This document shows, piece after piece, positions 1-30,246 of a stretch of DNA of 34,536 bases; position 1 is the first letter of the stretch, and each line of letters starts with the position of its first letter. Location: assembly GCA_012145005.1 (NCBI GenBank), contig GCA_012145005.1_3029.2, one strand, 5' to 3'. Below the pieces are notes generated by a model that worked only from the letters and a program-made list of their open reading frames with translations, searched no databases and had not been told where the DNA came from. The stretch comes from a phage. The translations under genes were made by a program, and so were the position numbers.

Positions 1-400
1 CTTTAAAAGCAGAAACTTCAACTTTTTTACTAAAATAATAAATGTTGCGAATATCTTCTTCAAACTTAAATTTAATTTGCTTTAAGCGTCCGATATATTC
101 ACGATAAAACACAAGTGCATCAGCGTCAGAGATGTCACCAATCCAAGCATCTTGGTTAGCAACCAGATTGCTTATAAAAATTAAAGCAAGTTCCTTTAAT
201 TTATATTTTTCTGATAGCTTTTGGAAAAAATACTTATCCCTTCGCTTTTGATAAGCGGCATCAGACACCCGCATGCACCAATTATACTTAATAACATCAT
301 ACTTTCCATTCATATGTTGTTTTATCATTAAGTATAATTTATAAACTGATTTACCATCAATATATCTTTCACCACCAGCAGGCATGCGGAGTTTAATCAT
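1..400 (-). CDS. 59: gene 59 helicase-loading protein, N-terminal 133 codons (3' end lies left of window)
   Basis: ATG at 400..398 overlaps gp33 stop (ATGA); open frame to position 1; N-terminus MIKLRMPAGGERYIDGKSVYKLYL recognised as T4 gp59. Confidence 0.8.
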   Translation of the reverse strand, partial: MIKLRMPAGGERYIDGKSVYKLYLMIKQHMNGKYDVIKYNWCMRVSDAAYQKRRDKYFFQKLSEKYKLKELALIFISNLVANQDAWIGDISDADALVFYREYIGRLKQIKFKFEEDIRNIYYFSKKVEVSAFK

Positions 401-735
401 AGTAGAAAATCTAATGTATTAGTTTTTTCACAACGAACAACAGAAGGACGTAAAAGATTTTCGTCAATAGCTTCTGACTGAATTTTTTCAATTATCCCCG
501 AAGGAATAAATTTAGCAAATTGAGTTTCAGGAATAGAGTTTTCTTCCAAGAATGCTGTCGTAGCTTCAAGATAACTCATTCCAAACTCTTCTACCATTTT
601 TTCAATAATAAATCCATTTTCTTGACGATCAAGAAGCTTTGCTATTTCATCCTTTTCTTTCTTAATTGAAAGTTCTTTTTCTGAAAGACCGGTCTCATCG
701 ACCGGACGAATATCATTTAGAGAAAACTGTGTCAT
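397..735 (-). CDS. 33: late transcription co-activator gp33 (112 aa)
   Basis: Track ORF 397..744 starts at TTG; first ATG at 735 gives MTQFSLNDIRPVDETGLSEKELSIKKEKDEIAKLL, recognised as T4 gp33. Confidence 0.85.
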   Translation of the reverse strand: MTQFSLNDIRPVDETGLSEKELSIKKEKDEIAKLLDRQENGFIIEKMVEEFGMSYLEATTAFLEENSIPETQFAKFIPSGIIEKIQSEAIDENLLRPSVVRCEKTNTLDFLL

Positions 736-982
736 AAAGTTCAACTACCTCTTCAGTTTCAGCTTCAAACACATCACGATTATCTTTATGATACAAAGCT
801 AATAGACGATTAAACATCTTACCATCAACGCCAAGTTCATCTTTGGCACGAATTCGAATATCTTTAATCAGTTCATTATAACCGGAAATTTTCAGTTTAT
901 GATCAGATGCTTCTTTAATAAATTTAGCCAAGTCTTCGCCATGGATAGCTTCATCAAATTCAACCATTTCTTTTTTAGCCAT
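713..982 (-). CDS. dsbA: dsDNA-binding protein DsbA (89 aa)
   Basis: ATG at 982 with GAGGTGA SD; size and position between rnh and 33 as in T4. Confidence 0.8.
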   Translation of the reverse strand: MAKKEMVEFDEAIHGEDLAKFIKEASDHKLKISGYNELIKDIRIRAKDELGVDGKMFNRLLALYHKDNRDVFEAETEEVVELYDTVFSK

Positions 983-990
983 TATTCACC

Positions 991-1908
991 TCAAAATTCA
1001 TTAATGCTATTAGTTAATTTAGAAAGACCCGCTTTTACAAAATATGAATAAATTTTGCCACGCGGTGGTAATTTATATGAATTATAGTAATTCACAATGT
1101 TTGAAGCAATATTATCAGGAATATAATCAAAATCAATTAGAACTAAATTTTCTTTATAACGATTATACTCAGATTCTGAGAGAAGCACCTTAGCTTGCTC
1201 ACGGTCATTAGCAATAGCTTCAACGATTGAAGTTTTCATTGAAGGAGTTCGTTCACCTTCAACTCTGGTAAACCAAAAGTCAGATCGTACTTTAACTGAA
1301 GCAACATTATCCTTTTTGTCACCCTTAAGAATTTTAGTCATACAATCAATTTCAGCAGAACCGCTTTTAATTTTAACCCATTTCTTATGCATCGGTGACC
1401 ATTGCTTAACATTTGGATATTTGTGAAGCTGTGTAAAGTCACCATCCGATGAAATGATTAAAATCTTATGTCCTTCTAAAGAGAACTTTTTAACAAGAAC
1501 AGCAATGTGGTCATCTGCTTCATACTTATCAATATCCATAACAATGTATGGCATATAAGCTTTCAATTCATCTATAACTTTATGGCTGGATTCAAAATAA
1601 CCTTCCCAGTCCCAAGTTGATTCTTCTCGTGCTTTTCCACGGTTTTTCTTGTAATAATACGCGAAATCACGACGCCAGTATCCAGATTTCGCATTATCAA
1701 TACACAGTACAATTTTAGTGTATCCAAGAGTTTTTGCTTTTTTGACATTAAACTTAATTGAGTTCAATATCAAATGACGAACCATTGATAAATTAATTTT
1801 TTCTTTATCTGGAAAGTTTGCCAAAGCAGTTGAAAGCGCAATCTGACTAAAGTCAATTAAGCAGATTCCTTCTTTGTAATCTTCATCCAGCATCATTTCT
1901 AAATCCAT
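991..1908 (-). CDS. rnh: RNase H / 5'-3' flap exonuclease (305 aa)
   Basis: Track ORF starts at TTG 1923; first ATG at 1908 gives MDLEMMLDEDYKEGICLIDFSQIAL, recognised as T4 RNase H. Confidence 0.9.
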   Translation of the reverse strand: MDLEMMLDEDYKEGICLIDFSQIALSTALANFPDKEKINLSMVRHLILNSIKFNVKKAKTLGYTKIVLCIDNAKSGYWRRDFAYYYKKNRGKAREESTWDWEGYFESSHKVIDELKAYMPYIVMDIDKYEADDHIAVLVKKFSLEGHKILIISSDGDFTQLHKYPNVKQWSPMHKKWVKIKSGSAEIDCMTKILKGDKKDNVASVKVRSDFWFTRVEGERTPSMKTSIVEAIANDREQAKVLLSESEYNRYKENLVLIDFDYIPDNIASNIVNYYNSYKLPPRGKIYSYFVKAGLSKLTNSINEF

Positions 1909-1937
1909 ATGAACCTCGTTCAATTAGTGAGATTTCT

Positions 1938-1967
1938 ATTATATACTATCCGAATCTTAAAGTAAAC
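1938..1967 (-). promoter_or_regulatory. early promoter for rnh
   Basis: Minus strand GTTTAC -35, 18-bp spacer, TATAAT -10. Confidence 0.6.
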
Positions 1968-1970
1968 AAG

Positions 1971-1983
1971 TATAAATACTTAT
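1971..1983 (+). promoter_or_regulatory. late promoter for gene 34
   Basis: TATAAATACTTATT about 30 nt upstream of the gene 34 ATG. Confidence 0.7.
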
Positions 1984-2012
1984 TATTGAAAACACAATAG
2001 GAGCCCGGGAGA

Positions 2013-5000
2013 ATGGCCGAGATTAAAAGAAAGTTCAGAGCAGAAGATGGTCTGGACGCAGGTGGCGATAAAATAATCAACGTAGCTTTAGCTGATCGTG
2101 CCGTAGGAACTGACGGTGTTAACGTTGATTACCTAATTCAAGAAAACACAGTTCAACAATATGATCCAACTCGTGGATATTTAAAAGATTTTGTAATCAT
2201 TTATGATAACCGCTTTTGGGCTGCTATAAATGATATTCCAAAACCAGCGGGAGCTTTTAATAGCGTACGTTGGAGAGCATTACGTACTGATGCAAACTGG
2301 ACAACTGTTTCGTCAGGACCTTATCAATTAAAGTCAGGTGAATCAATTTCAGTTAATACTGCAGCAGGAAATGATATCACATTTACTTTGCCAACTTCTC
2401 CAATTGATGGAGATACTATCGTTCTTCAAGATATTGGTGGAAAACCTGGAGTTAACCAAGTTTTAATTGTAGCTCCAGTGCAAAGTATTGTAAACTTTAG
2501 AGGCGAACAAGTACGATCAGTACTAATGACCCATCCAAAATCACAGATAGTTTTAATTTTTAGTAATCGTCTGTGGCAAATGTATGTCGCTGATTATAGT
2601 AGAGAAGCTGTAGTTGTAACGCCTGCAAGTCTCTATCAGGCGCAATCAAACGATTTTATCGTACGTAGATTTACTTCTGCTTCAGCAATTAATATTAAAC
2701 TTCCTAGATTTGCTAATCATGGGGATATTATTAATTTTGTTGATTTAGATAAATTAAATCCGTTATATCATACTATCGTTACTACATACGATGAAACGAC
2801 TTCAGTACAAGAAGTTGGAACTCATTCTATTGAAGGCCGTACATCTATTGATGGTTTCTTAATGTTTGATGATAATGAGAAATTGTGGAGATTGTTTGAC
2901 GGGGATAGTAAAGCACGTTTACGCATTATAACGACTAATTCTAATATTCGTCCAAATGAAGAAGTCATGGTATTTGGCGCGAATAATGGAACAACCCAAA
3001 CAATTGAACTTCAGCTTCCAACTGATATTTCTATCGGTGATACTGTTAAGATTTCCATGAATTATATGAGAAAAGGACAAACAGTTAAAATCAAAGCTGC
3101 CGGTGAAGATAAAATTGCTTCTTCAGTTCAATTGCTGCAATTTCCAAAACGTTCAGAATACCCACCTGAAACTAAATGGGTGACTGTTCAAGAATTAGTT
3201 TTTAATGGCGAAACCAATTATGTTCCAGTTTTACAGCTTGCTTATATCGAAGATTCCGATGGAAAATATTGGGTTGTACAGCAAAACGTTCCAACTGTAG
3301 AAAGAGTAGACTCTTTAAATAATTCTACTAGAGCAAGATTAGGCGTAATTGCTTTAGCTACACAAGCTCAAGCTAATGCTGATTTAGAAAATTCTCCGCA
3401 AAAAGAACTGGCAATTACTCCAGAAACGTTAGCTAATCGTACTGCTACAGAAACTCGTAGAGGTATTGCAAGAATAGCAACAACTGCGCAAGTAAACCAG
3501 GATACCACATTCTCTTTTGCAGATGACCTTATCATCACTCCTAAAAAGTTGAATGAAAGAACTGCTACAGAAACTCGTAGGGGTGTCGCTGAAATTGCTA
3601 CGCAGCAAGAAACAAACGCAGGAACAGATGATACAACCATCATTACTCCTAAAAAGCTTCAAGCTCGTCAAGGTTCTGAATCATTATCTGGTATTGTAAC
3701 TTTTGTATCTACTGCAGGTGCTACTCCGGCTTCTAGCCGTGAATTAAATGGTACAAATGTTTATAATAAAAACACTAATAACTTAGTTGTTTCACCTAAA
3801 GCCTTGGATCAGTATAAAGCTACTCCAACGCAACAAGGTGCAGTAATTTTAGCAGTTGAAAGTGAAGTAATTGCTGGACAAAGTCAGGAAGGATGGGCAA
3901 ATGCTGTTGTAACGCCAGAAACGTTACATAAAAAGACATCAACTGATGAAAGAATTGGTTTAATTGAAATTGCTACGCAAAGTGAAGTTAATACAGGAAC
4001 TGATTATACTCGTGCAGTCACTCCTAAAACTTTAAATGACCGTAGAGCAACTGAAAGTTTAAGTGGTATAGCTGAAATTGCTACACAAGTTGAATTCGAC
4101 GCAGGCGTCGACGATACTCGTATCTCTACACCATTAAAAATTAAAACTAGATTTAATAGTACTGATCGTACTTCTGTTGTTGCTCTATCTGGATTAGTTG
4201 AATCAGGAACTCTCTGGGACCATTATACCCTTAATATTCTTGAAGCAAATGAGACACAACGTGGTACACTTCGTGTGGCTACACAAGTTGAAGCTGCTGC
4301 TGGAAAATTAGATAATGTTTTAATAACTCCTAAAAAGCTTTTAGGTACTAAATCTACTGAAGCACAAGAAGGTGTTATTAAAGTTGCAACACAAACCGAA
4401 ACTGTTGCTGGAACATCGGCAAATACTGCTGTATCTCCAAAAAATTTAAAATGGATTGTGCAGAGTGAACCTACTTGGGCAGCTACTACTGCAGTAAGAG
4501 GCTTTGTTAAAACTTCATCTGGTTCAATTACATTCGTTGGTAATGATACAGCCGGTTCTACTCAGGACTTAGAGCTATACGAGAAAAATAGCTATGCAGT
4601 ATCACCATACGAATTAAACCGTGTATTAGCAAATTATTTGCCATTAAAAGCAAAAGCTGCAGATAGTAATTTATTGGATGGTCTAGATTCATCTCAGTTC
4701 ATTCGTAGGGATATTGCGCAGACGGTTAATGGTTCACTAACCTTAACTCAACAAACGAATCTGAGTGCCCCTCTTGTATCATCTAGTACTGCTACGTTCG
4801 GCGGATCAGTTTCAGCAAATAGTACATTAACTATTTCTAATACTGGAACAGCAACTCGATTGATTTTTGAGAAAGGACCTCAAACTGGAACAAACCCAAC
4901 CCAAACGATGACTGTTAGAGTGTGGGGAAATCAATTTAGTGGGGAATTAGATACAACACGTTCTACCGTATTTGAAGTTAGTGATGAAACATCTAGTCAT

Positions 5001-5882
5001 TTTTATTCTCAGCGCAATAAAGCCGGAAATATAACATTTAATATCAACGGTACAGTAACACCGATAAATGTTAATGCTTCAGGAACATTGAATGCAAATG
5101 GCGTAGCAACATTTGGTAATTCAGTCACTGCAACTGGTGAAATTATTTCTCGAAGCGCAAATGCTTTCCGTGCTATTAACGGAAATTACGGTTTCATTGT
5201 TCGCAATGATGGATCAGTAACGAATTTTATGCTTACTGCATCGGGTGATCAGACTGGTGGATTTAATGGATTACGTCCATTGTCCATTAATAATCAATCT
5301 GGGCAGGTCACAATTGGTGAAAGCTTGATCATTGCTAAAGGTGCTACTATAAATTCAGGTGGTTTAACTGTTAACTCGAGAATTCGTTCTCAGGGCACTA
5401 AAACATCTGATTTATACACCCGCGCTCCAACATCTGATACTGTAGGATTCTGGTCAATTGATATTAACGATTCAGCTACTTATAACCAGTTCCCAGGTTA
5501 TTTTAAAATGGTTGAAAAAACTAATGAAGTGACTGGTCTTCCATATTTAGAACGTGGCGAAGAAGTTAAATCTCCTGGTACACTGACTCAGTTTGGTAAC
5601 ACACTTGATTCGCTTTACCAAGATTGGATTACTTATCCAACAACGCCAGAAGCGCGTACCACTCGCTGGACACGTACATGGCAGAAAACCAAAAATTCTT
5701 GGTCAAGTTTTGTTCAGGTATTTGATGGAGGTAACCCTCCTCAACCGTCTGATATCGGTGCTTTACCATCTGATAATGCTACAATGGGTAATCTTACTAT
5801 TCGTGATTTCTTACGAATTGGTAATGTTCGCATTATTCCTGACCCAGTGAATAAAACTGTTAAATTTGAATGGGTTGAATAA
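2013..5882 (+). CDS. 34: long tail fibre proximal subunit gp34 (1289 aa)
   Basis: ATG with AGGAG SD; N-terminus MAEIKRKFRAEDGLDAGGDKIINVALADR; about 40-aa fibre repeats; TATAAATA late promoter upstream. Confidence 0.95.
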   Translation: MAEIKRKFRAEDGLDAGGDKIINVALADRAVGTDGVNVDYLIQENTVQQYDPTRGYLKDFVIIYDNRFWAAINDIPKPAGAFNSVRWRALRTDANWTTVSSGPYQLKSGESISVNTAAGNDITFTLPTSPIDGDTIVLQDIGGKPGVNQVLIVAPVQSIVNFRGEQVRSVLMTHPKSQIVLIFSNRLWQMYVADYSREAVVVTPASLYQAQSNDFIVRRFTSASAINIKLPRFANHGDIINFVDLDKLNPLYHTIVTTYDETTSVQEVGTHSIEGRTSIDGFLMFDDNEKLWRLFDGDSKARLRIITTNSNIRPNEEVMVFGANNGTTQTIELQLPTDISIGDTVKISMNYMRKGQTVKIKAAGEDKIASSVQLLQFPKRSEYPPETKWVTVQELVFNGETNYVPVLQLAYIEDSDGKYWVVQQNVPTVERVDSLNNSTRARLGVIALATQAQANADLENSPQKELAITPETLANRTATETRRGIARIATTAQVNQDTTFSFADDLIITPKKLNERTATETRRGVAEIATQQETNAGTDDTTIITPKKLQARQGSESLSGIVTFVSTAGATPASSRELNGTNVYNKNTNNLVVSPKALDQYKATPTQQGAVILAVESEVIAGQSQEGWANAVVTPETLHKKTSTDERIGLIEIATQSEVNTGTDYTRAVTPKTLNDRRATESLSGIAEIATQVEFDAGVDDTRISTPLKIKTRFNSTDRTSVVALSGLVESGTLWDHYTLNILEANETQRGTLRVATQVEAAAGKLDNVLITPKKLLGTKSTEAQEGVIKVATQTETVAGTSANTAVSPKNLKWIVQSEPTWAATTAVRGFVKTSSGSITFVGNDTAGSTQDLELYEKNSYAVSPYELNRVLANYLPLKAKAADSNLLDGLDSSQFIRRDIAQTVNGSLTLTQQTNLSAPLVSSSTATFGGSVSANSTLTISNTGTATRLIFEKGPQTGTNPTQTMTVRVWGNQFSGELDTTRSTVFEVSDETSSHFYSQRNKAGNITFNINGTVTPINVNASGTLNANGVATFGNSVTATGEIISRSANAFRAINGNYGFIVRNDGSVTNFMLTASGDQTGGFNGLRPLSINNQSGQVTIGESLIIAKGATINSGGLTVNSRIRSQGTKTSDLYTRAPTSDTVGFWSIDINDSATYNQFPGYFKMVEKTNEVTGLPYLERGEEVKSPGTLTQFGNTLDSLYQDWITYPTTPEARTTRWTRTWQKTKNSWSSFVQVFDGGNPPQPSDIGALPSDNATMGNLTIRDFLRIGNVRIIPDPVNKTVKFEWVE
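3441..3580 (+). repeat. in-frame direct repeats within gene 34
   Basis: ACTGCTACAGAAACTCGTAG occurs at 3441 and 3561, 120 nt apart, matching the 40-aa fibre repeat. Confidence 0.7.
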
Positions 5883-5890
5883 GAGGTATT

Positions 5891-7006
5891 ATGGAAAAAT
5901 TTATGGCAGAGTTTGGACAAGGATATGTCCAAACGCCATTTTTATCGGAAAGCAATTCAGTAAGATATAAAATAAGTATAGCGGGTTCTTGCCCGCTTTC
6001 TACCGCAGGACCATACGTTAAATTTCAAGATAATCCTGTAGGAAGTCAAACATTTAGCGCAGGTCTTCATTTAAGAGTTTTTGACCCTTCTACAGGAGCA
6101 TTAGTTGATAGTAAGTCATATGCTTTTTCGGCTTCAAATGATACTACATCAGCTGCTTTTGTTAGTTTCATGAACTCTTTGACGAATAATAGACTTGTTG
6201 CTATATTAACTAGCGGAAAGGTTAATTTTCCTCCTGAGGTAGTATCTTGGTTAAGAACAGCAGGAACGTCTGCTTTTCCATCTGACTCTGTATTGTCAAG
6301 ATTTGATGTATCATATGCTGCTTTTTACACTTCTTCTAAAAGAGCTATTGCATTAGAGCATGTTAAACTAAGTAATAGAAAAAGCACAGATGATTATCAA
6401 ACTATTTTAGATGTTGTATTTGACAGTTTAGAAGATGTTGGAGCTACCGGGTTTCCAAGAAGAACGTATGAAAGTGTTGAGCAATTTATGTCAGCCATTG
6501 GTGGAACTAATAACGAAATTGCACGTTTACCGACTTCATCCGCGATAAGTAAATTATCTGATTATAATTTAATTCCTGGCGATGTTCTTTATCTTAAAGC
6601 GCAGCTATATGCTGATGCCGATTTACTTGCGCTTGGAACTACAAATATATCTATCCGTTTTTATGATGAATCGAATGGATATATTTCTTCAACACATGCT
6701 GAGTTTACTGGACAAGCTGAGTCATGGGAATTAAAGGAAGATTATGTAGTTGTTCCTGAAAATGCAGTAGGATTTACGATATATGCACAAAGAACTGCAC
6801 AAGCAGGTCAAGGTGGCATGAGGAATTTAAGTTTTTCTGAAGTATCAAGAAATGGCGGAATTTCAAAACCTGCTGAATTTGGCGTCAATGGTATTCGCGT
6901 TAATTATATCTGCGAATCTGCTTCACCTCCAGATATAATGGTACTTCCTACACAAGCATCGTCTAAAACTGGTAAAGTGTTTGGACAAGAATTTAGAGAA
7001 GTTTAA
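5891..7006 (+). CDS. 35: long tail fibre hinge protein gp35 (371 aa)
   Basis: AAGAGG SD; N-terminus MEKFMAEFGQGYVQTPFLSESNSV; position after gene 34. Confidence 0.9.
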   Translation: MEKFMAEFGQGYVQTPFLSESNSVRYKISIAGSCPLSTAGPYVKFQDNPVGSQTFSAGLHLRVFDPSTGALVDSKSYAFSASNDTTSAAFVSFMNSLTNNRLVAILTSGKVNFPPEVVSWLRTAGTSAFPSDSVLSRFDVSYAAFYTSSKRAIALEHVKLSNRKSTDDYQTILDVVFDSLEDVGATGFPRRTYESVEQFMSAIGGTNNEIARLPTSSAISKLSDYNLIPGDVLYLKAQLYADADLLALGTTNISIRFYDESNGYISSTHAEFTGQAESWELKEDYVVVPENAVGFTIYAQRTAQAGQGGMRNLSFSEVSRNGGISKPAEFGVNGIRVNYICESASPPDIMVLPTQASSKTGKVFGQEFREV

Positions 7007-7733: not shown

Positions 7734-11859
<4,126 letters not shown>

Positions 11860-11889
11860 TTTGAATAAATATCCTTAAAAGGAGGGTCT

Positions 11890-15290: not shown

Positions 15291-15326
15291 TTCTGTATCA
15301 GTAGTTGATAGTTGTATAGTACCACA
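15291..15326 (-). repeat. dispersed promoter-leader repeat, copy 1 (motA)
   Basis: Minus strand GTGGTACTATACAACTATCAACTACTGATACAGAA. Confidence 0.6.
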
Positions 15327-15345
15327 GTATGCTTTGGTTGTAAAC
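15316..15345 (-). promoter_or_regulatory. early promoter for motA
   Basis: GTTTAC, 18-bp spacer, TGGTACTAT; directly downstream of a terminator hairpin. Confidence 0.65.
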
Positions 15346-15360
15346 CGTTTTGTGAAAAAA

Positions 15361-15394
15361 TTTTAAAATAAAAAGGGAGAGCCGAGGCTCTCCC
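15361..15394 (-). terminator. intrinsic terminator after the motA.1-position ORF
   Basis: Perfect 8-bp stem GGGAGAGC/GCTCTCCC, 4-nt loop, then UUUUUAUUUUAAAA on the minus-strand transcript. Confidence 0.65.
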
Positions 15395-15399
15395 TAAAA

Positions 15400-15549
15400 T
15401 TACTGCATGACTGTGATAACTGTCATGATAACACGTTGAATTCCGAACGCAAGAAGACCTCCTGCTACGGCTGGAACAACACCTAAACCCGTCAGTAAAA
15501 TGCTACCGGATACTAATGCAGCGCTTGTAATACCTATGAATGGACTCAT
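15400..15549 (-). CDS. small hydrophobic protein (49 aa; motA.1 position), not in ORF track
   Basis: ATG overlaps gene 52 stop (ATGA); MSPFIGITSAALVSGSILLTGLGVVPAVAGGLLAFGIQRVIMTVITVMQ; followed by an intrinsic terminator. Confidence 0.5.
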   Translation of the reverse strand: MSPFIGITSAALVSGSILLTGLGVVPAVAGGLLAFGIQRVIMTVITVMQ

Positions 15550-16874
15550 TTGATTTCCTCTAAATCTTTGGTGTATTCTGTAACTACATCAGTAGTTTTC
15601 CAATATTCGTTTTCTTCTTTTTTGGCTTTAGCTTCTTCAGCAAGTTTCTTCGCTTCATCGGAAGTCATATGAAAAATATTCATTCCGACTAGTTTATCAA
15701 CATAAGAAGAATACATATCAATTTTAGAAAGTTCTTCGGTCAGTTCTTTACGAGTTTTACCTTGTACAACAATTTCACCTGAAATTACTTTCTTAATGAA
15801 ATGTGCCTTGGCAAAGGCTAAACGAAATGCCGATTCAGTTTCTTTGATTTTGTTATCAATTCGTTTTTGGACATAAGTTTTACGAACTTCAACGAAGTCT
15901 TTGATTAAATCAACTACGTTATCGTAAACTTGTAGTTTTCCTTTCTCATTAATAACGGTAATATTCTGGGAACGACGCTCAATCAACCCGAAGTCTTTCA
16001 TAATTTTTGCATGGCGTTCTTCTTCGTTATCGCTCAAGGAATATTCTTTACGGAATTTAACTTTGAAGCCAAAACCATGCTCACCACAAGCATCATCCCA
16101 CGTAATGAAGCCTTTATCTTCAAGCGGGTCTAAGATTTTACTCACGTAAGTTTCACGATCATACTTATACGGAATCTCAGTGATATTCATTTGAGTTCGT
16201 GAAGTAAACTTGTACGTTCCACGAATTTCATATTGACCGTCAATTTCAACGACTTCACCACGAAATTCTGGGAATTCTACCTTCGGTTTAGTTACTTTCT
16301 TTCCTTGAAGAGCTTGTAATACAGCTTTCTTAACAGAAGAAACACTATGAGGAAGAATGTAAGTTGCATAACCAGTTGCAATACCGGAAACGCCATTAAG
16401 AAGAACAGTAGGAATAATAGGCAAATAGAAAGCAGGCGGAATGTGTTCTTTATCTTGATGTACTGGAGCATATTCAGTATCTTTATATACGTTATAGAAA
16501 TTTTTACTTACACGAGCAAAAATATAACGACTAGCTGCTGCCTTTTGGACAGTACGAGAACCGAAGTTTCCTTGACCATCTAACAAAGGAAAGTTATTAT
16601 TCCAAGTGTTAGCCATCAAAGCCCCCGCATCTTGTGCAGAGTTTTCACCATGGTGATATCCAAGGTCCGCTACACCACCTGCAATAGAAGCGAGTTTGTG
16701 AAACTTATCTTTATTTCCTCGTGCCAAATCAAGAGCTCGAGCAATAACAAATCGTTGAACTGGCTTAAATCCATCAATCATATTTGGAATAGCACGATTT
16801 TCAACCGTGTACATAGCATAAGCCAATGCTTCATTATCAATGATACTTTTTAAATCGCGATTATTCAGTTGCAT
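15546..16874 (-). CDS. 52: DNA topoisomerase II medium subunit gp52 (442 aa)
   Basis: MQLNNRDLKSIIDNEALAYAMYTVENRAIPNMIDGFKPVQRFV, GyrA-like breakage-reunion domain; recognised as T4 gp52. Confidence 0.9.
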   Translation of the reverse strand: MQLNNRDLKSIIDNEALAYAMYTVENRAIPNMIDGFKPVQRFVIARALDLARGNKDKFHKLASIAGGVADLGYHHGENSAQDAGALMANTWNNNFPLLDGQGNFGSRTVQKAAASRYIFARVSKNFYNVYKDTEYAPVHQDKEHIPPAFYLPIIPTVLLNGVSGIATGYATYILPHSVSSVKKAVLQALQGKKVTKPKVEFPEFRGEVVEIDGQYEIRGTYKFTSRTQMNITEIPYKYDRETYVSKILDPLEDKGFITWDDACGEHGFGFKVKFRKEYSLSDNEEERHAKIMKDFGLIERRSQNITVINEKGKLQVYDNVVDLIKDFVEVRKTYVQKRIDNKIKETESAFRLAFAKAHFIKKVISGEIVVQGKTRKELTEELSKIDMYSSYVDKLVGMNIFHMTSDEAKKLAEEAKAKKEENEYWKTTDVVTEYTKDLEEIK

Positions 16875-17180: not shown

Positions 17181-17336
17181 TCAACTATTTTTAGAACCAA
17201 TGTACGCGAATAATGATAAAATCGCTAATACGCCCTGAGCTGATGCTTGCAAAAATACTGAAGTTTCTCCAGTTATTACTGTTCCGATGCATAAAAAGAA
17301 CCAACAGAAAAAGGCTATACCGTGAACAAATTTCAT
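17181..17336 (-). CDS. small membrane protein (51 aa), paralogue of the Ac-like ORF; not in ORF track
   Basis: ATG at 17336 with GAGGA SD; MKFVHGIAFFCWFFLCIGTVITGETSVFLQASAQGVLAILSLFAYIGSKNS. Confidence 0.45.
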   Translation of the reverse strand: MKFVHGIAFFCWFFLCIGTVITGETSVFLQASAQGVLAILSLFAYIGSKNS

Positions 17337-18869: not shown

Positions 18870-19076
18870 TCAATAATCCGCTAAAAGATCGACGATTGCA
18901 TCACGAAGACACTTATTCGCAATACGTTTAAGAGCAATTTCAGTTTCTGGAGCATTTTGAATAATCATTGAATTCAATTCAGCCTCAGCAAACTGAAGTT
19001 CTTTAACTAATTCAGCTTTATATTTTCCTTGCCCTTTCTTAGCTTTTGCTCGTTTTAATTCAGCTGTAGTAAACAT
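18870..19076 (-). CDS. hypothetical protein (68 aa)
   Basis: Track ORF 18870..19175 reads through an early promoter; ATG at 19076 follows GGAGAATAAA; MFTTAELKRAKAKKGQGKYKAELVKELQFAEAELN. Confidence 0.55.
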   Translation of the reverse strand: MFTTAELKRAKAKKGQGKYKAELVKELQFAEAELNSMIIQNAPETEIALKRIANKCLRDAIVDLLADY

Positions 19077-19714: not shown

Positions 19715-19976
19715 TTAGACTTTCCTTTTTACCGCTGAGATAAGCGTTATATACTTTAAGAGTGCCGTAATAAATTCGGTCATTTTCATCTAAAGACTCA
19801 CGGTCAAGTTCATCGAGTTCCTTTTTATCCATGACTATAACATCATTGCAATAAAGAAACCCAAGTTTTTCGTGTCCAAACTCAAATTTATTACAGTACA
19901 CAATATTAGCGTGATGATTACCATGTAGAGAAATTTCTTTTATGTCGGAATCACCGATATTCATACAATAAATCAT
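19647..19976 (-). CDS. hypothetical protein (109 aa)
   Basis: ATG at 19976 with AAGGTGA SD; 3' end overlaps denB start by 68 nt out of frame. Confidence 0.5.
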   Translation of the reverse strand: MIYCMNIGDSDIKEISLHGNHHANIVYCNKFEFGHEKLGFLYCNDVIVMDKKELDELDRESLDENDRIYYGTLKVYNAYLSGKKESLNAENESGFTETISDSDIYPIEQ

Positions 19977-21174: not shown

Positions 21175-21185
21175 AATTTTCCTTA

Positions 21186-23363
21186 TTAGGCCGCAAGGGC
21201 CTTCATAGTTTTAGCGATTTGGGAAACTTCATCATCACTTAAAGAGCTGCGATATCCGATGAAGTCGGAAACAATACGGAATTTCTTGGTAAACTCAGCA
21301 ACCATTTTATCACTGTTTTTTGAAGCATTATTTGATAATACATCAAAAAGATTAGTTACTGTCCAGATGTCATGACCGATGGTATCTTTTCCACCATTAA
21401 AATATACACCGCGCAATGAACTAACTATATTAGCGAGTCGTGTATATTCTTCAGAAACTTCATCTGTACTGAAGTACTTCATCATAAAATCTAGTTCAGG
21501 ATACTTGATAATTTTATCAATATATCGTTGAGCTGAACTTGAATAACCTACATACTTATCATAATCTACATCATCAAAAGCATCTACATATAAATCACGC
21601 AAAGCTTCAAAAATACATTGGCACTGACCGAGTTCTTTTACCTTTTTCTGTAAAAGCGGACGAATAACATAAAATTCATTAATGCCAATAAGATTAGCCA
21701 TACGAATCAAAATATTCATAGATGGATGACAAAGAGATGTAGTACCATCCATAGAGAAAATATCAGAACGATGCATATACGCTACATAACCAGTAATTTC
21801 ATCTGCTTCTGACGTAAGTGTAAATAGTTCCTCTTTTTCCCATCGCCCATCTTTAATTTCAAATTTAAATGCTGTAGCAGCTTTAGGACGAGGAGCTTTA
21901 CTTTTAACTACCTTTGGAATATAGCTTTTAACTAAAGTTTCAATTTCTGACAAATAATGAATGTTAACTTCATCACTTTCAAACATTGTCATAATATCAG
22001 GTAGTAAATCAATCTGCGATTCTACTTCCGGATTAATAAACAGAAGACGTTCATTGTGATGAATATTCAAAGTGTTATTAAATTCACTATCATCTAACGC
22101 GTGGGCTAATCCACGGACAATATTAACACGATTTTTAATATTATCAATAACGATATTAATTTTTGTTGTATTAATACCAAACAGACGATAACTTGATGCA
22201 ACGGCTGAAGTTTCATGACTTTGCTTAATGCGCTTCAGTCGAGGGTCAAGATTTACTTCATACACCACGCCTGCATTACATAACTTACTGTCAGGTTCAA
22301 ACATGCTCTGCATCTTTTTATATGACAGATTTTTAGTCGTGAATTTGACTGAATTACTAATCATATAATCTCGAGCAGAATATCCCATCTTCATCAATTC
22401 ACGATATGTGTGACGGGGAGATGTAGATTCTTTAAATCGTTTTACATCTTCATTAAATGCTTTCTCACTAAGCTCTTTAACTCGTTCAATAATATTTTTA
22501 CGAGTACGATCATCCAATGAAAGAGCTTCACGTGATGGAGCAATATCAAGTGAACCCATTGGAAACTTAATGTAATTCACTTCATTGCGAATGCTTAGCC
22601 AGTTACGGTCTCTAATAACACCATCGATAGGATAAACAATACCGCCATAGATAGCATATAATCCACCACGATCAGGCCAGTATCTTTCTGGATTTACACC
22701 GTAATAATCATCAAAATCCGGAAAATAATCAATTTCACGGTCAAGACCATTAATAATAGCCAAATCTTTGAACGGTCGCATGATATAAGAAACTTCATAA
22801 GCAAAGTTTCTAAAGTCTTTTTCTTCAACTGGAACTACGATTTCAATACCAGTTTTATCATCTGGACCCATTTCTTTCACGAATGTAGGTTTAATTTGTG
22901 GACCATCGCCATCCATGTAAGCTACATAACCACGAATTTCACCTTTATGATACGAAGTAATACTAAACGTATCAGTATAACTAAATGGAGATTTAGAACC
23001 TAAACCAAATCCGCCAATGAAATCGTTAGATTCAGCCTTAGATGAACTGAAGTATGAATTATACAGACCAGGAGAATTATCATCACCCTGAATATCAAAA
23101 TCACTCATACCCGGACCAAAATCTCGGCAAACAAATCGTGGATCTAAACGTCCAGGAACTTGTATGATAAATTTTTCAGGATTTCCATTGAGAGCATGGG
23201 CATCAATCATGTTAGTAATCAATTCACGGACTACTGCGCGAATCTTGTTTGTATACAAATCAGATGATAAGATTTTAAATACTTTAGGAGATGCTGTGAT
23301 GCTAAATGCTTTTGATTTAGAACCATTACCAAGAATTGTTTCTTTTTCAGTGGTGATAATCAT
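21186..23363 (-). CDS. rIIA: rIIA protein (725 aa)
   Basis: Size and position; N-terminal ATPase-like region (LITNMIDAH ... GLGSKS). Confidence 0.9.
21188..21202 (-). other. short GC hairpin between rIIA and rIIB
   Basis: AGGCC ... GGCCT inverted repeat overlapping the rIIA stop. Confidence 0.3.
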
Positions 23364-23373
23364 AATTTCCTCA

Positions 23374-23577
23374 TTAATTCATATTACGCTTAATAACTTC
23401 AGCAACTTCTAGTAGTTCGTCTTTAGTTGCGGTGTCGGATTGAATTTTATCTCTAATATCTTTAAAGCGGTTTTTAAATTCTTCGGCTTCTCCCATGTCG
23501 AAAAAGCGTTGAATGATTCTATATTCTCGATGAACTGCTTTATCAAAAAGTTCTAAATTTACTCTATATGATTTCAT
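23374..23577 (-). CDS. hypothetical protein (67 aa; rIIA.1 position)
   Basis: ATG at 23577 with GAGGATATTGAA SD; early promoter directly upstream. Confidence 0.6.
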
Positions 23578-23602
23578 TTCAATATCCTCATTTGCCCAAT
23601 TA

Positions 23603-23632
23603 ATTATACCACATCCTTGTGGTAAAGTAAAC
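23603..23632 (-). promoter_or_regulatory. early promoter for rIIA.1-position ORF and rIIA
   Basis: GTTTAC overlapping the gene 39 stop, 18-bp spacer, TGGTATAAT. Confidence 0.6.
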
Positions 23633-25449
23633 TACTGGCTCATCCATTCTTTACGAAGGTCAGCATTATCTCCCATGAGCATTTCAAAAAGCTCTTTCCA
23701 ATTCTCAGGAAGTTTAACAACATCATATACTGGATTTTGAATCATCTCACGATATTCAGATTTTTCCAAAGAGCCAAGTCCTTTAATATAACGGATGCTA
23801 TGTTTAGGTAGAGCATCTTTGGCACTCTCATATTCAGCGACTGTATAAAACCATTCTTGTTTTTTACCGACCTGAGCGATGATTACAGGAGTTTTGACAA
23901 AGCGAATTCGTCCTTGCTCAAACAGTTCTGGCCAATTACTAAAAAATCCGAGCAGAGAAGGATAAATGCTTCCTAGACCATCATGGTCAGCATCAGTCAT
24001 AATAGCAATATTATGATAATTCAAGTTTTCGGCTTTTTCACCAAGAACTAATCCAGTGATTGCGCAAATATCAAACAGTTCTTTGTTTTTAAGCATATCA
24101 GCATATGACATACCCCAACTGTTGAGAACTTTACCACGCAATGGATAACCACCGTGAAGTTCTTTATCACGAACATCAATAAGATATCCGATAGCAGAAT
24201 CACCCTCAGTCAAGAAAAGAGTCGTGTCAGCATCTTTACCACAAAGATTCGCTTTAATGTGTTTATGAACCTTAGCTTTAGAAGCCTTTTTAGCTGCTTT
24301 AGTTTCTGCTGCTTTTTCTGCCGCCAATTTACGAGCCAAGGCAGCTTCAATAATTGGCATTAAAATTGCTTCATTGTTTAAAATGGCGCGCGAAATCTTT
24401 TTAGCATCAAGCTGAATATGACTACGAATTTCACCAAATGGAGAAGTCAAACGCTCTTTAGTTTGAGAATCAAATCGCATGTTTTTCATATCACGAACAA
24501 ACATGACGATAGTCAAACATTCTTTAACACGTGCTTTAGTTACATCAATTTTGAACTTACGTTTGATTTGTGGAATAAGGTCTTCACAAATATCATCCAT
24601 AACACAGTCAATGTGATGACCACCATTCTTAGTATGAATGTTATTAACGTATGTTAATTGACGAAAACCATCCGGTGAACGACCAACCGCAATAGAACAA
24701 TTTTCTTGTTCTTGAACAATAGCATGCTCATCATATTGGCGTGCATATTTCTTAAAATTACCCTGAACCTTTTTACCATTAAAGGTAAATTGAATATCAG
24801 GATAAACTACTGCAAGTGTCTGGAGACGATCCAGTGTAATGTCAAGATAAACCTGAGACAGCTCATTAGTTTCAAATGACATAAAATCAGGAATGAAAGT
24901 AACACGAGTTCCTTTCCATTTTCCAGGAATATCTTCCCATGATTTATTTTCCATGCCATTTGAACAACGAACTACAATATTATTTTGACCATCGCCAGTT
25001 TCACCAACAAACATTACAGAAAAAATGTTAGTTAAACTAGAACCAACACCGTTCATACCACCAGTGACGCGTTCTTTATCATCACCGAAGTTACCACCTG
25101 CTTTTGGAATAGTCCAGGCAGCAACAGGACCAGGAATTTCTTCGCCGGTAGGTGTTTTAACCATCGCTTGTGGAATACCGCGACCGTTATCTTCAACTGT
25201 TACTTGATTGTTTTTGATAGTAACATTAATTTTATTCGCGAATTTAAACTTAGTACGAATACCTTCATCTACTGAGTTATCGATAATTTCATCAATAAGC
25301 TTAACAAGACCAGGTACATACTGAACACTTTCCCATTTACCAAACAGAAAGCGCTCATGCATTTCATTAGCAGAAGAGCCAATATACATGCCGCTACGCT
25401 TTTTGATATGTTCAATATCGCTCAGAATTTTAATTTCATTCTTAATCAT
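23632..25449 (-). CDS. 39: DNA topoisomerase II large subunit gp39, uninterrupted form (605 aa)
   Basis: Track start is GTG at 25452; ATG at 25449 follows GAGGA; MIKNEIKILSDIEHIKKRSGMYIGS; GyrB-like ATPase and Toprim (EGDSA) in one reading frame. Confidence 0.9.
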   Translation of the reverse strand: MIKNEIKILSDIEHIKKRSGMYIGSSANEMHERFLFGKWESVQYVPGLVKLIDEIIDNSVDEGIRTKFKFANKINVTIKNNQVTVEDNGRGIPQAMVKTPTGEEIPGPVAAWTIPKAGGNFGDDKERVTGGMNGVGSSLTNIFSVMFVGETGDGQNNIVVRCSNGMENKSWEDIPGKWKGTRVTFIPDFMSFETNELSQVYLDITLDRLQTLAVVYPDIQFTFNGKKVQGNFKKYARQYDEHAIVQEQENCSIAVGRSPDGFRQLTYVNNIHTKNGGHHIDCVMDDICEDLIPQIKRKFKIDVTKARVKECLTIVMFVRDMKNMRFDSQTKERLTSPFGEIRSHIQLDAKKISRAILNNEAILMPIIEAALARKLAAEKAAETKAAKKASKAKVHKHIKANLCGKDADTTLFLTEGDSAIGYLIDVRDKELHGGYPLRGKVLNSWGMSYADMLKNKELFDICAITGLVLGEKAENLNYHNIAIMTDADHDGLGSIYPSLLGFFSNWPELFEQGRIRFVKTPVIIAQVGKKQEWFYTVAEYESAKDALPKHSIRYIKGLGSLEKSEYREMIQNPVYDVVKLPENWKELFEMLMGDNADLRKEWMSQ

Positions 25450-25466
25450 CACTTATCCTCGTTTGG

Positions 25467-25496
25467 TTTCGGGAATATTATACTCCGGTAATCATA
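25467..25496 (-). promoter_or_regulatory. candidate promoter for gene 39
   Basis: Perfect TATAAT -10 but only a weak -35 (CTTTA). Confidence 0.4.
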
Positions 25497-25502
25497 AAGC
25501 TA

Positions 25503-25518
25503 AAGGCCCGAAGGCCTT
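25503..25518 (-). other. UUCG-tetraloop hairpin after the lipoprotein ORF
   Basis: AAGGCC-UUCG-GGCCUU directly after the stop at 25519; moderately U-rich downstream. Confidence 0.45.
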
Positions 25519-25779
25519 TTATTTAAAACGGATAGTCGAATCCTTGAAGAATAGACCAGAACATACGGTTCCTTCTACTTTCTGCCCGGTAGGTCCAATA
25601 GCACGAAATCCAGTATGTTGGAAATCATTTTCAGAGCAACCGAACCAATTGTATCCAGTGATTTCAATATTAGTAAACCCACTTGAAGACAAAACTTTGG
25701 TTGCATTATCAGCATCAGTACATCCTACTAAAGACACTGCTAATACTAATGCCGCGATAGAACGATTAACATATTTCAT
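25519..25779 (-). CDS. predicted lipoprotein (86 aa precursor)
   Basis: Track start is TTG at 25791; ATG at 25779 gives MKYVNRSIAALVLAVSLVGC with lipobox LVGC; mature part has three more Cys. Confidence 0.5.
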   Translation of the reverse strand: MKYVNRSIAALVLAVSLVGCTDADNATKVLSSSGFTNIEITGYNWFGCSENDFQHTGFRAIGPTGQKVEGTVCSGLFFKDSTIRFK

Positions 25780-25783
25780 AATT

Positions 25784-26155
25784 TCACTCAAATTTAATGG
25801 CTTGAAGGAGACTAATAATTCTTAAACGGCTTCTTTCATCTTTAACTGTAAAAGAAAGAGGATCGCCAGATTTCATGGTGATAGTGCATTCAAAACCAAA
25901 ATCTTCAGGAACTTCTTCGAAGAAGTCAAATTCTTCATCATAAATTAAAACATTACTCTGAAAACTGTGAAGAATTTTTCCATCATTTCCAGATGCTGTA
26001 CTAATCATTGTAACATTATGACCTTTCATATCTTCAACGATAAATTCGCTTGTAGATATTACGGCATTAATAGAACCATTCCTATAAATAGAAGAAAGCA
26101 GATATTTCTTTTCTTCACCTTCACGAACACGATATTTCTTACCGATTTTAAACAT
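25784..26155 (-). CDS. hypothetical protein (123 aa)
   Basis: Track ORF starts at GTG 26161; first ATG at 26155. Confidence 0.55.
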   Translation of the reverse strand: MFKIGKKYRVREGEEKKYLLSSIYRNGSINAVISTSEFIVEDMKGHNVTMISTASGNDGKILHSFQSNVLIYDEEFDFFEEVPEDFGFECTITMKSGDPLSFTVKDERSRLRIISLLQAIKFE

Positions 26156-26157
26156 AA

Positions 26158-26334
26158 TCACCCTTTAAGTAAGTCGTAAAATCCACCATTCACATGCTTA
26201 GGAGCAGAAGGCCGACGAGTAGACAGACGATGACATTTAGGACAAACATCATTTTCTCGTTCAGAAATCTTTTTAATTTTTTCATATTCATGCCCGCAAT
26301 CTTCGGATTGGCATTTATAATCATACATTGGCAT
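26158..26334 (-). CDS. FmdB-like zinc-ribbon protein (58 aa), not in ORF track
   Basis: AAGGAA SD; MPMYDYKCQSEDCGHEYEKIKKISERENDVCPKCHRLSTRRPSAPKHVNGGFYDLLKG with two Cys pairs. Confidence 0.5.
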   Translation of the reverse strand: MPMYDYKCQSEDCGHEYEKIKKISERENDVCPKCHRLSTRRPSAPKHVNGGFYDLLKG

Positions 26335-27720: not shown

Positions 27721-28263
27721 TTAATTCAAAATAGCTACCACTGCACTACGAGGTACTACACTAAAATCACCTGCATGAACAACGTTCAGAAGTTCAACAC
27801 CATCTTCAATCCACTGGTCTGTTACCCAACCACAGACCGAAATAAATGGGGTCTTGATAGCTACAGCACGAGTTAGAAGGTCAGTAGGATCGCATTCTTG
27901 GAAGAGGATAAGCTCTGCTTCAAAGACTATAGTTTTAATTACTTCATCATTATCTAATCGTTGTGCTCGAATCACGTAAGCTTTATTCTTATCATGCCAA
28001 TTACTTTTTGAAAAACTTTTAACCACAAACTCGCCTTCACCCAAAACACTGGTCAATGCTTTATAACCCAAACTTAGTTCAGTAGTTTTAATTTCAGTTT
28101 CAACCAGTTTGTAGGTTTTGTCAATTTCGATGGTCCGAGCAGTCATAAAAGTTTCCTTAATTTCTAATGGTTTAACAAGAGTGCCGTACATGCTTGCTAT
28201 ATCCATATCAAATATTTTATCTATAGGATTTGGGGTGTATTCAGGATTATAATTAAATTTCAT
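27721..28263 (-). CDS. hypothetical protein (180 aa), paralogue of ORF 27147..27644
   Basis: ATG at 28263; shared motif C-x-[IV]TDQW[IV]EDGV-x-L-x-N-x-V. Confidence 0.6.
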   Translation of the reverse strand: MKFNYNPEYTPNPIDKIFDMDIASMYGTLVKPLEIKETFMTARTIEIDKTYKLVETEIKTTELSLGYKALTSVLGEGEFVVKSFSKSNWHDKNKAYVIRAQRLDNDEVIKTIVFEAELILFQECDPTDLLTRAVAIKTPFISVCGWVTDQWIEDGVELLNVVHAGDFSVVPRSAVVAILN

Positions 28264-28265
28264 AA

Positions 28266-28766
28266 TTATCTCATTTCAATAAAATCTACAAGTTCAGCAT
28301 GGGATTTGCGGAACATTACTTGGTGTCCGCCAATGATAACTTCATCTTCAGGAACTTCGTATACAGCAAGATAAAACCCTTTAGAAGATAATTCTTCACG
28401 TTCTTCTCGTGTGAACCATCTCATCATATCATATTCACTAGCGAAAGCAAAATGATAAAGAGCTATAAACCATCCTGGAATATGATATTCTACTCCAACA
28501 TAATCTTTCTTGAACTTAGTATTAATTACTATATTAGCGTTTTTAACTAATAGTTTATCTTCATGTGGTACAGGAATTCTTTTATTATCATCACTATGAT
28601 GCATAAAATTAGGTCTGCTATAACCTACCCGTAATAGCCACTCTTCGCTCCATGAATCTATTATACTCCTGTATGGCGTTATTTGAACACAAAGATTTCG
28701 ACGTATTGTTATAGCATCTTCATAATCAAGAATACTAAACGATGATTCAACACGATAAATTTTCAT
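28266..28766 (-). CDS. hypothetical protein (166 aa)
   Basis: Track ORF 28266..28805 reads through an early promoter; ATG at 28766 follows GAGGATAATAAA; MKIYRVESSFSILDYEDAITIRR. Confidence 0.55.
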   Translation of the reverse strand: MKIYRVESSFSILDYEDAITIRRNLCVQITPYRSIIDSWSEEWLLRVGYSRPNFMHHSDDNKRIPVPHEDKLLVKNANIVINTKFKKDYVGVEYHIPGWFIALYHFAFASEYDMMRWFTREEREELSSKGFYLAVYEVPEDEVIIGGHQVMFRKSHAELVDFIEMR

Positions 28767-30008: not shown

Positions 30009-30240
30009 ATTTAATCAGCAACTTACAGACACTTTCATCTAATGTAATTACAGTATCTGTATTACTGTGATATGATTGTTTTTCAATTCGTTTAATTGCT
30101 AGTATAGTATCACTTATAAGATTAAGCTTATAAAGGAGCTCAGCTCCTGTTACCATAACACTGAGGTTATCTTGCTTATCAGTGTGCTTCTTTATACCAT
30201 CTATTAGACGATTTAAATATTTTGAATTGATGTTAATCAT
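29980..30240 (-). CDS. hypothetical protein (86 aa)
   Basis: Track ORF immediately downstream of dda. Confidence 0.5.
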   Translation of the reverse strand: MININSKYLNRLIDGIKKHTDKQDNLSVMVTGAELLYKLNLISDTILAIKRIEKQSYHSNTDTVITLDESVCKLLIKFEEAIRGNN

Positions 30241-30246
30241 ATATCC

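Follow-up and report, generated by a model that had tools for sequence, protein, structure and literature searches.

Gene 39 of this phage, which encodes the large, GyrB-like subunit of a type IIA DNA topoisomerase, is a single uninterrupted gene that corresponds to T4 genes 39 and 60 together, and it lacks the T4 coding gap of 50 nt. We put the probability that it is the ordinary, unsplit gene of a Tequatrovirus (T4-like phage) at about 96%. The analysis covered a 34.5-kb stretch of DNA (here called the window) out of a genome of ~165-170 kb, and the features discussed below are collected in Table 1.

A single reading frame encodes the ATPase, transducer and Toprim regions

The ORF listing showed 605 codons and a stop in a single frame on the minus strand, with no internal stop in the gene 39 frame between 23632 and 25449. 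An earlier sequence-only reading had proposed that one 605-aa frame at these positions encodes both a GyrB-like ATPase and a Toprim region; its coordinates proved exact, although the strand was left unstated, and Pfam matches to HATPase_c, DNA_gyraseB and TOPRIM_C bore out the domain content. Given the base composition of the window, the chance of a random frame remaining open over 605 codons is ~1.5e-20. The longest version of the ORF (23632..25452, minus strand) starts with GTG and would encode 606 aa; the ATG at 25449, one codon downstream, yields the 605-aa protein beginning MIKNEIK, with the same start as T4 gp39. A scan of positions 23300-25900 for promoters and terminators found no more sites than in shuffled sequence. 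One strong sigma-70-like promoter match (TTTACT-17-TATAAT, extended TG, 10/12) lies at 23603-23631 on the minus strand, directly past the gene 39 stop and upstream of rIIA.1/rIIA, in this region where promoter-like sites are no more numerous than in shuffled sequence.

Table 1. Coordinates in the window of gene 39, its domains and motifs, its junction site and the gene for its partner subunit
Feature	Position	Strand	Description or basis
Gene 39, uninterrupted	23632..25449	-	Large GyrB-like subunit (605 aa) of the phage type IIA topoisomerase
Shine-Dalgarno GAGG	25457..25460	-	8 nt upstream of ATG 25449; sequence reading
GHKL ATPase domain, aa 47-149	25003..25311	-	Pfam HATPase_c, E=2e-9
Transducer domain, aa 250-384	24298..24702	-	Pfam DNA_gyraseB, E=1.4e-13
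Toprim catalytic-Glu motif LFLTEGDSAIGYL, aa 411-423	24181..24219	-	Motif position; T4 keeps this motif in gp39
Empty MobA insertion site, 64 nt, codon 473 third base to codon 494	23968..24031	-	blastn breakpoints and codon table; 1117-nt mobA/gene 60 cassette in T4
Toprim acidic motif IMTDADHDG, aa 483-491	23977..24003	-	Motif position
TOPRIM_C, aa 519-604	23638..23895	-	Pfam PF16898, E=4.2e-7; encoded by gene 60 in T4
Gene 52, 442-aa GyrA-like DNA breakage-reunion subunit	15546..16874	-	Pfam DNA_topoisoIV, E=1.6e-76

All of the catalytic motifs of gp39 are intact. The GHKL domain contains the N-box and G-boxes expected of an ATPase of this type (EIIDNSVDE, DNGRGIP and GGMNGVGSS), and the transducer carries the QTK loop at aa 329-331, within QTKERL (aa 329-334). 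The full Toprim region is found on one polypeptide and in the same frame, with LTEGDSA at aa 413-419 (the catalytic Glu being aa 415), TDADHD at aa 485-490 (with the DxDxD cluster at aa 486-490), and TOPRIM_C at its C-terminal end. When the sequence of gp39 was compared with those of cellular enzymes, the whole protein aligned with human TOP2A/B, yeast Top2 and ParE, with E-values from 1e-47 to 1e-59. Bacterial GyrB/ParE and the N-terminal half of eukaryotic topoisomerase II share with it the order GHKL ATPase, transducer, Toprim; unlike them, the phage gp39 is a separate short subunit and has no GyrB insertion domain. The T-even phage enzyme is known to relax DNA and not to supercoil it (PMC11461880).

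T4 genes 39 and 60 together tile the single protein

The annotated record NC_000866 was used as the T4 reference. Its gene order is rIIA, rIIA.1, gene 60, 60.1, mobA (a defective HNH endonuclease), gene 39 and 39.1, and the annotation joins gene 60 from two parts, with a 50-nt "translational bypass region" between them at 2803-2852. The genes flanking gene 39 are collinear between T4 and the window. In blastp, T4 gp39 and gp60 tiled the window protein, upholding the proposal that gene 39 is uninterrupted here and has neither the gene 60 split nor the bypass: aa 1-473 of T4 gp39 matched aa 1-473 with 98.5% identity, and aa 27-160 of T4 gp60 matched aa 472-605 with 95.5% identity. By contrast, the window protein had no counterpart of the C-terminal 43 residues of T4 gp39 or of the N-terminal 26 of gp60. 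Similarly, when the engineered T4 gp39-gp60 fusion (8YO3) was used for comparison, gp39 of the window matched two stretches, one on either side of the T4-specific insertion.

The T4 split, at aa 473, falls within Toprim, between the catalytic Glu and the acidic cluster. The sequence-only reading had quoted the motif LFLTEGDSA in support of the Toprim assignment, and this is indeed present, at aa 411-419; however, it lies upstream of the split, so that T4 gp39 has the motif too. The part of the protein that is informative for the unsplit state is the DxDxD cluster together with the C-terminal 115 residues.

At the nucleotide level, blastn aligned T4 1-2793 with window positions 21175-23967, and T4 3911-5661 with positions 24032-25781, leaving 64 nt in the window opposite 1117 nt in T4. 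The T4 insert contains the 43-aa C-terminal extension of gp39, the remnant of the mobA/60.1 HNH endonuclease and the unique 26-aa N-terminus of gp60, and it also includes the 50-nt coding gap, which follows Gly46, together with a diverged version of the stretch that was deleted. The boundaries found here match those published for the MobA element, which is described as having a 64-nt deletion, a diverged "homR" copy borne on the insert and, in the T4 clade, another 9 nt of homR; near-identical parental genomes without the element are described in the same study (Manning & Atkins, bioRxiv 10.1101/2022.08.31.505936). A global alignment of the junction with free gaps scattered the 64 nt in spurious small blocks over the T4 insert, and the blastn breakpoints and codon table were preferred.

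The window junction reads straight through as GAT GGT CTA GGA AGC ATT (D490 G491 L492 G493 S494; codon table), whereas in T4 it reads GAT GGA, then the 50-nt gap, and then TTA GGT TCT. The position corresponding to the T4 gap is after the Gly491 codon, between window positions 23977 and 23976. The T4 copy of this junction stretch carries many synonymous differences from the window, and extends 9 nt beyond the gap. In T4 and a minority of relatives, the cassette replaced 64 nt of the Toprim-coding region with ~1.1 kb; its arrival divided the gene in two, 39 and 60, and introduced the 50-nt bypass element.

The window contains no remnant of the cassette

The insert itself (T4 2794-3910) had no match in the window when T4 1-7000 was used as the blastn query. 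In tblastn, gp60, its N-terminal extension and the C-terminal extension of gp39 matched only the homologous gene 39 stretch in the window, while gp60.1 and the mobA fragment gave no window match below E=1. Rather than being divided into an ORF1 (gene 39 plus the C-terminal extension) and an ORF2 (gene 60 plus the N-terminal extension), the coding region is one continuous ORF, and the window has no gene for an HNH endonuclease (mobA/60.1) separating two halves. Nor does the protein have the "hit-and-run" fused Topo2L form, found in an Aeromonas clade by Manning & Atkins, as it aligned with T2 and T6 gp39 without gaps and showed no similarity to the CTE or NTE.

A bypass element was taken to comprise a 50-nt gap between matched GGA codons for take-off and landing, with UAG after the first and then a stem-loop. 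A search of the window for the take-off and landing sequences, the check that the sequence-only reading had proposed, came out as it had predicted: there was no bypass element at the gene 39 site, and the T4 bypass hairpin GGATAGCCTTCGGGCTATC had no match in the window at up to 3 mismatches. A loose, frame-independent scan of the window by regular expression for GGA-stop-N38-58-GGA returned 13 matches, including one at 23645 that takes in the stop codon of gene 39 and its 3' flank. These were rejected as chance occurrences, as none has the T4 hairpin or falls at the homologous position in gene 39.

The gene 39 protein is nearly identical to those of T2 and T6, and its partner is encoded in the same window

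The gp39 of T2 (AP018813), also of 605 aa, was identical to that of the window at 604 of the 605 residues, F70L being the sole change, and T6 gp39 (PDB 8YLU), which has the same length, was identical at 603 of 605. Both T2 and T6 gp39 aligned without gaps. The nucleotide identity of gene 39 to T2 was 96.1%, and the 3.9% divergence was nearly all synonymous (70 nucleotide changes with 1 amino-acid change in 605), which indicates purifying selection. Relative to T2 and T6, the gene shows neutral sequence variation only, with the same partner, gp52, and the same location between rIIA.1 and 39.1. The T6 protein is represented by cryo-EM and crystal structures (8YLU, 8YO1, 8YO5, 8YOD and 9IMJ).

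Gene 52 is in the same window, 6.8 kb from gene 39, and its product is identical to T4 gp52 at 440 of 442 residues. The topoisomerases II of T2 and T6 consist of two subunits, gp39 and gp52, and T4 topoisomerase alone among type IIA enzymes has three; the ~70 aa inserted in the T4 enzyme project outside Toprim and have little effect on activity, and the T6 enzyme is active in DNA relaxation assays (PMC11461880). The presence of the partner gene in the window, together with the near-identity to the T6 and T2 proteins, argues for a conventional gp39(2)gp52(2) enzyme that is read without recoding. In this phage, gp39 would be translated conventionally to give the GHKL ATPase, the transducer and a complete Toprim with its C-terminal extension, no recoding being needed because the MobA homing-endonuclease cassette is absent. 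Two gp39 and two gp52 subunits would be expected to assemble into a two-subunit type IIA topoisomerase heterotetramer. From the near-identity of gp39 to the characterised T6 and T2 proteins, we infer that this enzyme would relax DNA in an ATP-dependent manner during phage replication, as shown for T6.

The uninterrupted gene is the majority state among related phages

The gene 39 region matched 555 phage records, and the T4 insert was found in 43. A 164-nt probe spanning the junction matched 495 records, and the match was continuous across the junction in 452 of these; the other 43 equal in number the records that carry the cassette. The uninterrupted gene is therefore the majority state, being present in 91% of related records, with the T4-type cassette in ~9% (43/495), and it is probably also the parental state. 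A one-piece gene 39 is already known, having been published for T2 and T6 (PMC11461880; bioRxiv 10.1101/2022.08.31.505936), and is ordinary here. The suggestion that the absence of the split and the bypass marks this phage as lacking the insertion holds in so far as the insertion is absent, but this does not distinguish the phage, as 452 of the 495 related records are alike.

Over 22.5 kb, the closest relatives were Shigella phages Sfk20 and KNP5 and Escherichia phage ECp13, all ~97% identical. With ~97% as the best identity, the source is a Tequatrovirus without an identical record in the collection.

Most of the records carrying the cassette matched the reference T4 insert at 97-98.7% identity over a span of 1106 rather than 1117 nt, i.e., 11 nt shorter, and most annotate an intact "homing endonuclease". 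The comparison of the inserts is consistent with mobA having become a pseudogene specifically in the reference sequence of laboratory T4 (Manning & Atkins, bioRxiv 10.1101/2022.08.31.505936).

Tail-fibre type and the state of gene 39 assort independently

The lack of the insertion had also been said to fit a T2-like tail-fibre module. This is a fair description of gp37 and gp38 in the window: gp38 is of the adhesin type (263 aa; Pfam GP38 PF05268, E=5.7e-72, plus Gp38_N), and gp37, of 1104 aa, ends in a C-terminal Peptidase_S74 intramolecular chaperone domain (Pfam). As evidence on gene 39, however, the fit has no value, because there are counter-examples in both directions. Phage PEC04 (KR233165), which among phage records gave the best full-length match to gp37/gp38 (100% coverage, 91.6% identity), carries the mobA/gene 60 cassette, whereas in Citrobacter phage PhiZZ6 (NC_054900) gp38 is of the T4 type and gene 39 is uninterrupted. 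Every pairing of gp38 type with cassette state occurs, and the two traits assort independently, in keeping with the behaviour of a homing element.

Several other segments of the window differ from T4. For positions 7901-11864, which comprise gene 38 and distal gene 37, there is no similarity to T4 at the nucleotide level, and the best database matches of this gp37/gp38 module (PEC04 and PP01) were only 91-94% identical, which points to a somewhat diverged receptor-binding module. Between 39.1 and 39.2 there is a 371-nt segment (25782-26152) that is absent from T4, with an ORF (25784..26161, minus strand) of 123-125 aa, which is annotated as RB32ORF005c or hypothetical in relatives and has no Pfam match. 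Segments without a blastn match to collinear T4 were also found at 17184-17331, 18872-19073, 19729-19930, 27834-28277 and 30018-30246, overlapped by minus-strand ORFs of 51, 101, 109, 180 and 86 aa, respectively, of which the 180-aa ORF occupies the position of T4 motB.1. These small unmatched segments are typical of the mosaicism of T-even accessory genes. In addition, the 77 nt upstream of motA (window 15291-15367) were 76.6% identical to T4 6576-6650, upstream of motB, and this stretch may be a shared regulatory or intergenic element.

Alternative histories of the locus

The uninterrupted gene might instead descend from an ancestor that did have the MobA/gene 60 cassette and lost it without a scar, either through precise excision or by acquiring an uninterrupted allele in recombination. 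"Hit-and-run" lineages that have lost the endonuclease and the bypass element have been described (Manning & Atkins, bioRxiv 10.1101/2022.08.31.505936); T-even phages recombine freely, and the window is itself mosaic relative to T4; and replacement by recombination with an uninterrupted allele would leave no detectable trace. However, the described hit-and-run cases retain the insert-encoded CTE and NTE, neither of which was detected in the window by tblastn. Moreover, the 64-nt segment is of the parental type rather than the diverged homR copy borne on the insert, and it lies within 105 nt (gene nt 1420-1524, codons 474-508) that are identical to T2. With 91% of relatives uninterrupted, a locus that was never invaded is also the more economical explanation. 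Past loss of the cassette therefore appears improbable, although, if true, it would inform the cycle in which the element is gained and lost.

We give still less credence, to the point of near-dismissal, to the idea that the ORF is non-functional as a single protein, being an assembly artefact or a pseudogene, and that a gene 60-like ORF elsewhere supplies the C-terminal part. The data comprise the window, and a gene 60-like copy could sit in the rest of the genome, but it would be redundant there. The catalytic motifs of gp39 are intact, only 2 of its 605 residues differ from the characterised T6 protein, and its divergence from T2 (3.9%, with 1 amino-acid change in 605) is nearly all synonymous. 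In addition, the same uninterrupted junction occurs in 452 independent genome records. The preferred reading remains that of an intact, one-piece gene, and no observation speaks against it.

Implications

For this phage, the finding means that the topoisomerase II should be annotated as a two-subunit enzyme (gp39 plus gp52) with no recoding event, and it has little importance beyond correct annotation. Because the split gene and ribosomal hop of T4 are due to a mobile element present in ~9% of genomes, their absence says nothing about taxonomy or host range.

As a naturally empty target site, the locus could be of use in studies of MobA homing. Nicking and homing by MobA have been demonstrated in T2, with the nick site ~20 nt upstream of the point at which the bypass element is inserted (Bonocora et al. 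2011, as cited by Manning & Atkins, bioRxiv 10.1101/2022.08.31.505936). The 105 nt around the site are identical to the T2 target, and from this we predict an empty MobA target that would be susceptible in a mixed infection with a phage carrying an intact mobA.
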